Program-made: the position numbers and the translations under genes
Shown: positions 449 through 64,000 of the stretch, one piece after another
Position numbering within the stretch: the stretch's first letter is position 1
Layout of the letters: each line of letters opens with the position of its first letter
DNA from: Cystobasidiomycetes sp. EMM_F5
Lineage: Eukaryota
Direction: 5' to 3'
Length of the DNA: 64,000 bases
NCBI GenBank assembly: GCA_051047955.1
Contig: JBPGPT010000002.1
Coordinates: 248,001 to 312,000, forward strand
The notes under the pieces: model-generated
What the model saw: only the letters and a program-made list of their open reading frames with translations
The model's database searches: none
Told to the model about the DNA's origin: nothing

Positions 449-2172
449 ATGAGCGCCGCACCTGGTCGCAGACTCTACATCGGACGGCTCCATCCTGATG
501 CCAACCGCCTGGATGTCGTAAGTCCTGCATTTTCGCCGTTTGTTGCAAGTGCGGCGGGCGGGCAATCGCTGACGGGAACCGCCTACAACTCACGCAATCC
601 GTCTGGTGACAACGCGAACTTTGTCAATAATGGATACGATGCATAGGAGGACTTGTTCAACTCGGTCGCAAAGACTGTAGAGGTCAAGATCTTCAGCGGT
701 TTTGGCTTCATCGAGTACGACAGCATCGATGTGGGTGTGGCTTAGTTTACTCTGAGTCTCCGGTGGAACTGACGTGTACAACACCTTGCTACAATGCATT
801 CATGTCCGTTATGATCTGCTGCCTGCGTCGTACTCTGCTTGTCATACTGCCTTTCAGGATGCCGAGGATGCCATCAAAAAGCTAGACGGTACAGACTTTA
901 TGGGAGATCGGTATGTAGGGAGTCTTGTACGCACCAACCACCAACTAACAAATCGGCCTTAGCATTATCGTTCAGTTCGCCAAAAGCGCTGGTCGAGACC
1001 GCGAGCGTCGCGACGCTCCTCGTTACGATCGAGGCGACCGTGGCAGTGGCGGACGCCCAGAGCAAGGCTGGCGTTTGGTCATGTCCAATCTCCCTCCTGG
1101 ATGCAGCTGGCAGGTACGGTGAAATTCTCTTTGGCATCTCTCAAGCTCCTCCTGTGGCTCTTGCCGTTGCCCTGTGGCTTTCTTTCCTCGTGGTTTGGCC
1201 GTGGCTGGCGTACTTGTCGCACTGTGTCTGAGGCCTACACCGCGTCTCTAAGGGCTTCACTGCCATATGGATGCTGAGCAGACAACGGGTCCTCCGGCAC
1301 TTATGTTCGGAAACGTTTCCTACCGTGGCGTGGCTTTGACAAGCTTGGTTTGGTCGATGGCGGCTGCACTGGATTGTACCCTCTTCCGTCCTTTTCCCTT
1401 ATCTTTGTGGTCCTCTTCGGAGTGGAGCTCGAAACGGATGGATATGGAACAAGACTAATTGGCTCTTCTCTCCCTCTTTACCTGGTCTGTCGATGGCTTG
1501 TCCACGCTGGCTTCTGGTCCCCGTGACTCCGATTAAACAGGATCTCAAGGACTTCGCGCGCACTGCAGGCAATGTCCATTATTCTGAAGTCTCTCGCTCG
1601 GACCCCTCTGAAGGGTGGGTCATACTCTCAGCCAATCGGCTCGACTCTGCTAACATGTTTGGATTTCTCTAGTCTGGTCGAGTACATGTCTCACTCTGAT
1701 GCAGAGGAAGCAATCAAGAAGCTAGACGGAGTCGACATGCGCGGCAGCATTGTCCGGGTCGCTGAAGGACAGGCTCCGCCCGGTCAAACCTGGTCCAACC
1801 CTGTAGGCTCAATGCATACCTTCGTTGATGTGCTCAGGAACTGAACGATGTAACGCAAACCTCCAGCGCCCTTCTCCTCCACGCGCAGCCCGTGACGATC
1901 GTGACAGAGGCTACTCCAGACGGGACCGAAGCCGCTCGCCCGGCTACAGGCGTGACGATCGTGACCGTGACCGCGGAGGAGATCGCGACCGTTATAATGA
2001 CCGTCGCCGCGATGAACGTGATGGAGGTCGTGACCGCGATGACCGTGACCGTCGAGGAGGCGACCGCGATAGAGATGTTGACCGCCGAGACCGCGGCGGA
2101 GACCGCGATCGATACGATGACCGCCGTCGCAGCCCTCCTCGTCGCGAACGCAGCCCGCCAAAGTACGATTAG
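449..2172 (+). CDS. SR-family splicing factor with two RRMs (SRSF4/5/6, Srp2-like) and an RD/RS-rich tail; multi-exon
   Basis: RRM1 motifs RLYIGRL and GFGFIEY; RRM2 signature SWQ|DLKDF split by intron 1114-1540; C-terminal RDRD/RSP repeats ending at TAG 2170-2172. Confidence 0.9.
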
Positions 2173-58470: not shown

Positions 58471-58886
58471 ATCGTGATGCCCGGATTACTGAGGCGAATG
58501 CACAAGCTTCTCCGAACTCAACTGAACAAGGGGGACGAGTCCATCAGGCTGGAATGGTAGTATCTGTTTTAAAGTCGCAAGATGTGAGACAGGCGCTGCG
58601 CCAGCCAAGTATGGCCACCCAAGCAGCGAGAATATTGCCATACCGCTGCAGCCGAAGCGCAGACATCCACGCAATAATATTCGTCACGTGCTATCTGTAC
58701 AGGCTCAGTTTGCTGGAAACGTCTATTGCACAGCCGGTAAACTTCTACGACCTTCCTATCCAGAAGTTGACATTGCCCGTCCTAGGATTGGTGGGACAGC
58801 CCCCCACGCAAATATAGACCAGGCACCGTCAGCAGCGGCAAAGTGGCGAATGAAATACAAGGGGGATAAGAGGTCTGACTAAAAGG

Positions 58887-58893
58887 TATAAAT
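58887..58893 (+). promoter_or_regulatory. TATA box of the metallothionein-like gene
   Basis: TATAAAT about 120 bp upstream of ATG 59014, followed by a C/A-rich leader and CAACATG start context. Confidence 0.65.
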
Positions 58894-59013
58894 TGGGCCA
58901 TTGGCTTGCGCTGCAGGTTGCTTCTGCTCCATCCACATCAGCATCTTCCAACCCCAAACCTGTCAAAGGCAAATCAGACCTCTACTCCATCTCAAACTCA
59001 AAGCTCAATCAAC

Positions 59014-59245
59014 ATGACTTCCTGCTCTTGCTCCTGTACGTATCCGTCTTCGCTTATTGCCCATGATGTACACCGTCGTTGACTCTGCTGTCACTCGCAG
59101 GCACCAACTGCACCTGCACCAACTGCACTTGCTCCAAGTGAGCGCTATCAGCAATGGCCTGCGCATCGACTTTGTGCGTCATCCTTTGTTCAATGCCAAG
59201 CTTGTTAGTATGCGGATGCTGACTACATTGTGCACGTACAGCTAG
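59014..59245 (+). CDS. Very small metallothionein-like peptide MTSCSCSCTNCTCTNCTCSN (20 aa, 7 Cys)
   Basis: Exons 59014-59035, 59101-59137, 59242-59245; canonical introns GTACGT..TTGAC..CAG and GTGAGC..GCTGAC..CAG; CxC/CxxC pattern, no aromatic residues. Confidence 0.85.
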
Positions 59246-59660
59246 CGAGGTCAGCGCGTCTTCGTTTGACAGGCATACGTTGCCTCTGACCCGATGTCAG
59301 ACTGTGTGAATGCAAACATTCGCAGCGGTGTAGATCAGCCCGATATACGTTATGTAGTACTATCAGCGTTGTCTGTCCTGATCTGTCAGTAACGCTTCAA
59401 ACTCTCAACATCTTGCGTAGCCGGTCCTGCTTGCACGTTATTGACAGGGCGTTTTGTCGTGACGCTTTCATTTCGCCGTGAGAAAGCGTGCAACGACTCC
59501 GGGGTTCTTGACGCCTTTTAGCCAGCGAACTCGAAGAAGGAAGAGAAGTAAAGCATAGAATGATTCATAAATAGACCAAACCGAAGCACAACGATTTTCC
59601 AAATACCAGACCGTCAATGATTGCGCTTTTGCGTATGCATGAATCGTGGTCCAGAAGCCT

Positions 59661-60651
59661 CTACCTAGCCGTCAACATTTTTACGAACTCATCGTAGTTG
59701 ATCTGGCCGTCTCCATCCACGTCTGTCATGCAATATGCGCAGCAATTTAGAAATTTCCATAGTCGTACAACAAGGATGAGAAAACTCACCAGCTTCGCGA
59801 ATCATTTCCTCGACTTCGGTATCAGATAGCTTTTCGCCGAGGTTGGTCATGACGTGTCTCAGCTCGGCAGCAGAAATGAAACCGTTGCCGTCCTTGTCGA
59901 AGACCTTGAATGCCTCCTTGATCTCCTCCTCACTGTCGGTGTCTTTCATTTTTCGGGCCATCATGGTCAGGAATTCGGCTGTAGCATGCGACCAGACCTT
60001 ATCAGGAGAACGCTGGAATGCAGGATTAGGATAAAGTGGCTTACGAAAGTCGATGGTACCGTTGCTGTCGGTATCTACTTCGTTGATCATGTCTTGTAAT
60101 TCGGCCTCGGTTGGGTTCTGGCCCAGCGACCGCATCACGGTTCCGAGCTCCTTGGTGGTGATTGTGCCATCTCCATCTGAGAGCACCATAGTAGTTAGTG
60201 TCAAGCAACTCCAAGACAGCTCTATTGATGCCTCTCTCACCCTTGTCCTACGTATGAGATCGGGAAGGTCAATGCGACCAAATTGACGAGAGTTAATGTC
60301 AGCAAGGAGGGCGAGCATAAGCTGATCTATCCAACCGTACAAAGAGAGAGAATGCCTCCTTGAACTCTGCGAGGCGCACAAAATGGAACCGGATCAGTGA
60401 TTGACCAAAGACGTGCCTATTGACTTCGCCAGAACGTACCAGAGATTTGCTCTAGATATCGTCGAAACAGGAGATGGGCACGGTCGACGCGCGTATCAGT
60501 GATCTTGCAATGCTCTCTGGCCAAGTGTCCCGACTATGTCCCATTGTAGACTTACCCTCAGTCTGGTCAAACGGGCAGCGAGAATGAGCATGGTTCAGAG
60601 TGCTGCGTGGCCTGCTAGCAGTGAACGTGGACTCACAAGCTGGTCTGCCAT
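59661..60651 (-). CDS. CMD1: Calmodulin
   Basis: Micro-exons give [89 protein letters not shown]. Confidence 0.97.
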
Positions 60652-61615: not shown

Positions 61616-62374
61616 CTAATCCCGCCAATCGACCTGCCCTTTCAACCATTTGTCCGTCTGCAGCTGACGACGGTACCACAACTTTCTTACCTCCCTAAAC
61701 TGCTTTGCAAAGTCATCTGGCGCGAGCTTTCCATCTAGTAGTGACGATATGAGCGACTCTGATAGCCTATCGTGGTCTCCGAGTGCTTGCCGCAAGCGCA
61801 TCAGCTGTCGTTGCGGGGTGAAGCGCTACAGTGACGGTATATCAGTGATACATCCGAAGTGACTCAAGTTGATGGCCCACTTGGTATGCCTCTGCCTGCT
61901 GCAGGACAGTATGCTGATGCCACCGTTCTTGAAGGCGGCGAGCGTCATCAAACGCAGCCTGAGAGTCCGCTTTCAGTGCTTGGTGCTGCTCCTTGAGAGC
62001 CATGTTGGCAGCTGTGTGTCCGCAATCAGTCTTACCATCCAGTCAATCTCAGTCTGGCATGACGCACCTGTAGCCTGTTCGTTGCGGACAAGATGCTGCT
62101 CGTGCTCGTCGTACATGGCCTTCGCTTGCGGCAGAGTCCCAAAGAGCGCATCAAAGTATGCCGGCGACCGCAGAGCTTCCTCGAGGTCGTCGCGTGTCAG
62201 CTTTGCCGTTGATGGAAACTGCAGCAGCAGCATCTCGGCTGGATCGTTTGAAGGAGCTGCTGCATTGCTGTAGGCTGCAGGCGGATATGGTTGCTGTGCA
62301 GCAGCTACGGGCGTGTACTGTGGTGACTGCGAGTACTGCTGCTGCTGCTGCTGGGCATACTGCTGTGCTGCCAT
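61616..62374 (-). CDS. VPS37: ESCRT-I subunit Vps37 (Mod_r domain)
   Basis: YFDALFGTLPQ..N; LRQAL..DRLSESLISS..FAKQFREVRKLWYRR at the C-terminus. Confidence 0.8.
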
Positions 62375-62465: not shown

Positions 62466-64000
62466 ATGCCAGTCTCTGCGGAATCGTCCCCGGACAGCAA
62501 GCTCGGTCAAGAGCCAGCTGTGGTGGACGCTGTCGAAGTGACAACGACGACAGCGACGGGCAGTCCCAGAGTCGTCGTATCGAAAGACGAGAGCATCATC
62601 GATGTGGCATTGACGCAGCAACAGGCCCAAGAGCACAGGCAATGGCACGAAGACCGGATACGAAGGCGTCTCTTGAATGAGTACGAGCAGCGAGGTCGCG
62701 CATTGAGCGAAATTGTGTGTCGAAGACTTGGGAAATTGTCATATCGCATCAATCCAAAGAAACTGATGAATCTGCTTCCTGTACTCTCATTTGACTTCTT
62801 CACTGATGTTGTATGCAGGTATCCAACAACCTCGACACTCCTCTACGCCTGAATGCCATTCGCGTCGTCGGAGCCAAACATACGCGGACCGACTTTCTCG
62901 CACGCATTGCCGCACCTTTTCTGTCGGATGACAAAGATGACTCGCAAAGAGCATACAGCGACACTCTGCGAGGTGTCTTGCAAAAGACACGGGGGTTCAG
63001 AGAAGCTCTACAAAAGTTTGACATCTTTTCGGAAATTGAAGAAGGGCTCGAGAGTTCACCAGGAGTGATGAACACTGATCAAGACGTCGACTTGATTGTC
63101 AAAGTCAAGGAGGGGAGCAAATACTTTTTGCGGACAGCGACTGATGTTGGCGATGGGGAAGGGAGTGCGGTACGTTCTCTGCTGGGCGATCTGTGCGTGT
63201 CGTGTACTCTGCTCACACGCACTGCGTACGGCAGACTGCAACAGCACGGATACGAAACGCTTTCGGTGGTGGAGAGACACTGGAAGGCAATGCTTCCTTC
63301 GGAACAAGAACGAAATCTTCATTCCAAGTTCGAGCGGCCACACCTTTATTTGCGGATCCCACAACAACCCTATCACTGAGCGCGTTCGCCATAGAGAGAG
63401 ATCTGTCCTACTTTGCGAGCTGTAGAGAACGCGTGAGGGGAGGTCGCCTGAGCTTTCGGGTACGTAACCTGTCGTTTCCCGCGACGATGGCCGGTCCTTA
63501 GGTTTTTTGCGAACAGGGTCTGTCGGCTCTTGGGGAGCATGAAGTAGCGTACGAAGGAGCTTTACGGAATCTTTGTGACGTCGGCAAGAATGCTTCTATG
63601 ACGTACGCAGACCATGAAGCTGTCCGATGCAAGACTAACTCATTCATGGCTTCATGCCCTATAGTATCCGAAATGCAGCAGGCTTATCTGTGAAATCCGC
63701 TCTTTCGCACACTTTATTAAGAGATACGCGGGACGATCCATTCATCGCAACTCGTGGCATGTATACTCGGCTGGTCCAAGAGTACGCAGGCTTGGGTGGA
63801 GACGCTACATTCATCAAGAGCGAAAATGAAGCGCAGATATCAAGACCCATAGGAGGTGGATGTGTGAGCAGACTCTATGATCTGTCTTGCCAAGTTTCTG
63901 GCTTATACCCTGATTCCCAGACCCTGTCTCTCGCGTTACGAGGCGGCCTTTTATATCCTCTAGGCGGAAAGCCGTCTCACATGCTGGACCGCTTCCACTT
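62466..64000 (+). CDS. SAM50: Mitochondrial outer-membrane SAM complex subunit Sam50 (partial, runs off the window)
   Basis: POTRA-like IRVVGAKHTRTDFL; DVGDGEG; RNAFGGGETL; DTRDDPFIATRG; EYAGLGGDA. Confidence 0.93.

Follow-up and report, generated by a model that had tools for sequence, protein, structure and literature searches.

The question raised by this locus is whether a frame of only 20 codons, split by an intron and dense in Cys, can be a functional gene, and whether its product would act as a metallothionein. The frame lies in a 64-kb stretch of fungal DNA, which was analysed as a whole and is referred to as the window. For a GPI-mannosyltransferase exon the look-up placed the matches in Eukaryota, with Ascomycota the most frequent group. 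According to the preliminary description, the ATG at 59014 opens a frame of 20 residues with seven Cys across an intron at 59036-59100, and this is borne out by the sequence and by the transcript contigs. The start codon at 59014-59016 stands in the context caacATGac behind a pyrimidine-rich leader, and the intron (intron 1 in Table 1) has the donor GTACGT, a TGAC branch-like site and the acceptor CAG. Its removal restores a Cys codon (T/GC), after which the frame runs to the TGA at 59140-59142 and yields 20 codons with a Cys content of 35%. Read without splicing, the same ATG leads to a stop after 22 codons.

The predicted peptide is composed of seven Cys, five Thr, four Ser, two Asn, one Lys and one Met. 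Its layout is M-x2, then C-x-C-x-C-x2-C-x-C-x2-C-x-C, then x2, with S-K as the last two residues, and no Cys stands outside the C-x-C and C-x2-C arrays. The spacers consist exclusively of Thr, Ser and Asn, there is no aromatic residue and no His, and no signal peptide or processing motif was recognised in the 20 residues.

Transcription of the locus was investigated in two runs of different studies, X1 and X2, each with a word share of 0.05. Both were aligned to 58800-60600, a region in which contig cover is absent at 58800-58921 and 59288-59653, and the RNA nature of both is a guess. One contig per run was at least 99% alike to the window, and both represent the micro-gene locus with intron 1 removed. 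The X1 contig (record 1, 151 letters, word depth 2.7) follows 58931-59035 and 59101-59137, and the X2 contig (record 8, 160 letters, word depth 2.3) follows 58968-59035 and 59101-59173, in both cases with no differences. The junction 59035/59101, for which an RNA check had been proposed in the preliminary description, was accordingly present in its joined form in both of the two runs, taking these to be RNA as guessed. The joint skips 65 nt with GT..AG ends and has a side of 37 letters in X1 and of 68 letters in X2. Since the contigs of two studies join 59035 to 59101, intron 1 is excised in real molecules.

The remaining contigs on 58800-60600 match calmodulin-like exons, one of them at 90-95% and twelve at less than 90%, and at below 95% likeness they are therefore assigned to other organisms. 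In X1, a run of 47 million letters, the contigs of another organism's calmodulin reached word depths of several hundred to more than 1000. We infer that cDNA is the best reading of the X1 and X2 micro-gene contigs. The joined form could instead stem from an intron-less (processed) DNA copy in the strain or from an assembly artefact, with the gene itself silent. Such an origin would be compatible with the merely guessed RNA nature of the runs and with contigs that are read-like in length and low in depth, but the skipped piece is exactly GT..AG with fungal-type donor and acceptor, it is skipped in two studies, and its flanks are identical to the window. The X2 contig moreover seems to skip a second GT..AG unit, and the great depth of the foreign calmodulin in X1 would fit cDNA better than genomic DNA. 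A DNA copy or artefact is on this evidence very improbable, and that the micro-gene is real and spliced is held to be highly probable.

Ahead of 58931 the X1 contig carries nine non-genomic letters that end in GGGG, which resemble a template-switch 5′ end. On that reading the transcript would start near 58931, 44 nt past the TATA box, although contigs cannot prove a start. The TATA box and the good start context that had been described were both recovered, as TATAAAT at 58887-58893 and as caacATGac. No ATG occurs at 58880-59013, and in the spliced RNA the 20-codon frame is therefore preceded by no other ORF; those that come next, of 7 and 32 codons, are both located downstream of it. Two other frames were considered as candidates and rejected. 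An ATG frame of 60 codons, within the stop-to-stop frame 59018-59245, starts inside intron 1, which is absent from the RNA, and its start is without transcript context; the start of an 80-codon frame on the minus strand likewise has no transcript context.

Table 1. Features of the micro-gene locus, in positions of the window.
Feature	Position	Strand	Evidence
TATA box TATAAAT	58887..58893	+	sequence only; 44 nt upstream of the first base in a contig
5′UTR, minimum extent 83 nt, no ATG	58931..59013	+	X1 contig
Coding exon 1: ATG, six codons and base 1 of a Cys codon	59014..59035	+	X1 and X2 contigs, 100% identity
Intron 1, 65 nt, GTACGT...CAG, phase 1	59036..59100	+	absent from contigs in 2/2 runs
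Exon 2, coding part including stop TGA 59140-59142	59101..59142	+	sequence and contigs
3′UTR, first part	59143..59173	+	X2 contig
Probable 3′UTR intron, 68 nt, GTGCGT...CTGAC...CAG	59174..59241	+	inferred; exact acceptor not seen
3′UTR continuation, 19 letters of the X2 contig	59242..59260	+	placement inferred

The 3′ part of the gene differs from what had been proposed. A second coding intron had been placed between a donor GT at 59138 and an acceptor at 59241, with a product ending in N, and the X2 contig contradicts it by running unbroken over 59101-59173, with no other letters, across the proposed donor. Because X2 reads through 59138, the stop in that mRNA is the TGA at 59140 and the predicted peptide ends in K, which matches the alternative given in the same description, namely a product of 20 residues ending in K when intron 2 is retained. 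The X1 contig ends at 59137, at its length of 151 letters, and is thus uninformative on the donor at 59138.

A second intron probably exists in the 3′UTR, with its donor at 59174 and with the acceptor at 59241 that had been proposed for the coding intron. The depth of the X2 contig is 0.30 in the bin 59166-59226 (2.3 x 8/61) and 0.72 in the bin 59227-59287 (2.3 x 19/61), GTGCGT begins at 59174, and CTGAC precedes, by 18 nt, the CAG ending at 59241. These bin depths and splice signals together therefore point to a 3′UTR intron of 68 nt at 59174-59241. Of the three exons over which the coding sequence was said to be split, two remain as coding exons, and the number three applies to the transcript if the probable 3′UTR intron is counted. 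A second ATG opens a plus-strand frame at 59154-59216, which would have 20 codons with five Cys if the 3′UTR intron is kept and seven codons once it is spliced; this Cys-bearing frame is probably due to chance.

How easily a frame of this kind arises in such DNA was assessed by listing every ATG of the 64-kb window, on either strand, and reading it unspliced or with one GTRNGT..YAG intron of 45-150 nt. Two ATGs gave products of at most 40 aa with at least seven Cys, namely the micro-gene and a 39-aa frame at 2570 in which the Cys are scattered. Among 20 dinucleotide shuffles, one yielded a model of at most 40 aa with at least seven Cys. This rarity in both the window and the shuffles counts against the view that the RNA is transcribed and spliced but non-coding, or that the 20-codon frame is functionless and its Cys frame a by-product of tandem repeats. 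Exon 1 is indeed a repeat of the 6-nt unit TCYTGC in about three copies, and exon 2 consists of two copies of a 15-nt unit with one synonymous C/T difference between them. Low-complexity DNA of this kind, present in both exons, could have given rise to the Cys richness incidentally. The window also has about 20 places with at least five Cys in 15 codons, mostly derived from repeats, and composition alone is therefore unconvincing as an argument for a gene.

Coding statistics were of modest help. GC3 of the 20-codon frame is 85%; six long ORFs have 48-58% and a calmodulin-like exon has 68%. This contrast is weak evidence, since GC3 climbs to 84% in another frame of that DNA. Two positions distinguish the repeat copies, and both changes are silent in the Cys frame, as they are in one further frame. 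On the other hand, the frame opens at the first AUG, in good context and with no ATG upstream, splicing keeps the Cys codons in frame and restores one of them, and the stop follows directly after the array, all of which are hard to reconcile with a frame devoid of function. Elsewhere in the window, runs of Cys codons occur in off-frames of repeat-rich DNA at 62301-62345 (+) and 62641-62662 (-), where simple repeats suffice to produce Cys-dense frames.

Profile searches gave little for the contiguous pieces of the gene. Neither the 24-aa stop-to-stop piece that holds exon 2 nor the 22-aa unspliced reading had any match in Pfam or PDB at E<=10, and with the Pfam family PF01439 (Metallothio_2) the 24-aa piece was again without a match at that threshold. 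This lack of profile matches for a contiguous piece is what a functionless frame would lead one to expect, but the nine-residue core of the peptide recurs in metallothionein-like genes elsewhere. When the core NCTCTNCTC, with T or S permitted at the x positions, was scanned for in metagenome contigs, 134 matches in 85 loci were obtained, mostly prokaryotic or from other kingdoms, and no fungal orthologue was among these 85 loci. In 21 of the 85 the core lies within a Met-started ORF of at most 60 aa with at least 25% Cys. Among viral contigs the core was present in five stretches, none of them in a Met-started short Cys-rich ORF, and in the literature searched the core was not found.

In the loci L029 and L044 and in the group of L006 and L023, of which those two were checked, the core stands at the end of a eukaryotic metallothionein-like gene, in a last exon that follows an intron. 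The last exons of L029 and L044, each at 1995-2069 (-), lie on contigs of low GC (0.34-0.35). Against Pfam Metallothio_2, L029 reached an E value of 0.0031 and 18.8 bits, below the cut-off of 23, and it was the exception among the 12 metagenome core ORFs tested, the other 11 having no Pfam match. Found both in short ORFs rich in Cys and at the end of metallothionein-like genes, the core is therefore a recurrent metallothionein building block. The metagenome matches represent likeness of design and are no evidence of descent or homology. With the evidence on both sides weighed, a non-coding RNA or functionless frame is rather unlikely.

Two further groups of ORFs were noticed among the metagenome loci. 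An ORF of 18 codons with six Cys was found at L001:1849-1902, L009:632-685 and L028:1721-1774; its last 11 residues are the same as in the window peptide, it is shorter than the fungal one of 20 codons, and its variants differ by one D/E change. A ribosome-binding site AAGGAGG precedes the ORF, which in L001 is situated about 25 nt upstream of thyX (Pfam Thy1, E 2.9e-21), and the context of these three loci is therefore taken to be prokaryotic or phage. The second group comprises 14 loci (L004, L014, L015, L030, L039, L046, L049, L059, L062, L065, L067, L081, L083 and L084) with ORFs of 33-41 codons and 11 Cys each, to which the cut L075 also belongs. These begin with M-K or M-N and end with the nine-residue core followed by C-x-C, and none of the three tested matched Pfam.

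Metal-response motifs were sought with the consensus sequences TGCRCNC and HTHNNGCTGD, of which the latter is Ace1-like. TGCRCNC had 53 matches in the window as against 109 expected, none of them between 58400 and the ATG at 59014. For HTHNNGCTGD, 76 matches were found where 71 were expected, and a single one, at 58543, falls in the stretch from 58400 to the ATG. Neither motif is thus enriched in the 64-kb window.

The metallothionein superfamily is made up of small, Cys-rich proteins that form metal-thiolate clusters, and the predicted peptide shows its traits in small size, high Cys content, C-x-C and C-x2-C arrays and absence of aromatics. Like the Fungi-I metallothioneins (family 8) of Neurospora crassa and Agaricus bisporus, it would have one domain with seven Cys, arranged as three C-x-C pairs and one Cys, with small polar spacers, no aromatics and Lys at or near the C-terminus. 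The Fungi-I spacers are made up of Gly, Ser and Ala, and those of the micro-gene of Thr, Asn and Ser. Unlike in Fungi-I, there are 20 codons as against 26, the spacers between the Cys groups measure 1, 2 and 2 as against 5, 3 and 2, and the single Cys follows the first pair where that of the family stands at the end. In PMC4755600 the 26-aa, 7-Cys metallothioneins of Neurospora and Agaricus are given the pattern X2-[CXC]-X5-[CXC]-X3-[CXC]-X2-C-X3, and for metallothioneins of this family the number of Cu(I) bound is about 6 (PMC4755600, PMC13107397). This Cys pattern is not found in the micro-gene peptide, which shares with it the seven Cys in one domain, and the label of a Neurospora-type version that had been attached to the peptide does not hold. 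The claim that it is more compact than the Neurospora metallothionein of about 26 aa stands, with 20 codons compared to 26 in PMC4755600 and 23 for MMT1.

In Agaricomycetes, according to PMC12508003, metallothioneins of 32-59 aa have the heptaCys motif C-x4-C-x-C-x2,3-C-x-C-x4-C-x-C, their genes have three to four exons and introns of about 50 bp, and they have grown by internal duplication. The short ones (AcMT2, PiMT1, AsMT2, LbMT1 and others) measure 32-35 aa according to the same paper. The micro-gene resembles these short forms in having seven Cys in one domain, small introns, several exons and growth by tandem duplication, and it is likewise a small multi-exon gene, with the 65-nt intron and the inferred, non-coding one of 68 nt. 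The heptaCys motif is absent from it: it has no more in common with the motif than the central C-x-C-x2-C-x-C, flanked by outer spacers of 1 and 2 where the motif has 4 and 4. It also has no Cys-free N-terminal stretch, and it is at least 12 residues shorter than the short Agaricomycete forms. The Cys layout thus matches neither of the two published fungal patterns with which it was compared (PMC4755600, PMC12508003), and from its sequence it appears to be a compressed and new one.

A likeness also exists to the C-terminal Cys domain of the plant-type metallothioneins (PF01439), as the last exon of L029 and L044 ends in exactly the nine residues of the exon 2 core; the plant-type proteins differ in their long spacer and additional Cys domain. 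In length and description the micro-gene resembles another very small fungal metallothionein-like gene, MMT1 of Magnaporthe oryzae, which encodes 23 aa and could be annotated only with a lowered length limit, according to bioRxiv 10.64898/2026.05.04.722827. Small as it is, MMT1 matters for function (PMC9036806). No metallothionein shorter than 20 residues was found in the literature searched, of which coverage was partial.

The best explanation of these data, with a probability of roughly 60%, is that the micro-gene is translated into a metallothionein-like metal-thiolate peptide. The RNA is transcribed from a TATA promoter and loses the 65-nt intron, and its first AUG opens the 20-codon frame; transcript, splice and first-AUG position are observed, and translation and a metallothionein action are predicted. 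The seven thiolates of the translated peptide would hold Cu(I) in a small thiolate cluster, and Zn or Cd less well. By analogy with other 7-Cys fungal metallothioneins such a cluster may hold roughly 4-6 Cu(I); Cu5-(7-Cys) units are given for the Cryptococcus metallothioneins in PMC4755600, and 5.8 and 6 Cu per metallothionein for 7-Cys fungal ones in PMC13107397. The peptide would thereby buffer or detoxify metal and may scavenge oxidants. The gene would have arisen via short tandem duplications of the 6-nt unit and the 15-nt unit, a known mode of growth among metallothioneins.

A peptide that is made may also have a main role other than metal storage, as a thiol antioxidant, a factor of the cell wall or of infection structures, or a precursor for modification. 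MMT1, with its 23 aa, is described as a wall-localised antioxidant required for penetration (PMC9036806, citing Tucker 2004), and the dominance of other organisms' sequences in X1 and X2 suggests that the source may live with a host. Against such a role, the 20 residues lack a signal peptide or processing motif. A metal-thiolate function and an antioxidant one are moreover compatible, and MMT1 is itself classed as a metallothionein. A main role outside metal storage is thus unlikely, and metal-thiolate action is retained as the preferred reading.

A more far-reaching version of this reading is put forward as a tentative one, and is on balance doubtful. The peptide would then be the shortest gene-encoded metallothionein yet seen, with 20 codons, or 19 residues if the initiator Met is cleaved off ahead of Thr, and a nearly spacer-free heptathiolate with a defined Cu(I) cluster. 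It would belong to a separate lineage of fungal metallothioneins built of C-T-N-C-T repeats, and would be expressed in or on another organism as a shield against copper or oxidants, like MMT1 or the Cryptococcus CMTs.

A multi-intron gene for a calmodulin-like EF-hand protein lies tail-to-tail with the micro-gene at 59689-60400 (-), about 550 nt apart, and would be a useful synteny anchor for orthologues of the micro-gene. If metal binding is true, the size limit of a natural ribosomal metal-thiolate cluster peptide would drop from 23-26 to 19-20 residues, and the classical 7-Cys unit of fungi could do without its long spacers. A 20-mer is easily synthesised, and the question of the minimal cluster is therefore directly testable by ESI-MS and spectroscopy. 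After MMT1, the micro-gene is another functional-looking gene below the length thresholds of gene finders, and it was recovered thanks to spliced cDNA contigs. Fungal transcriptomes should therefore be screened systematically for short ORFs rich in Cys.
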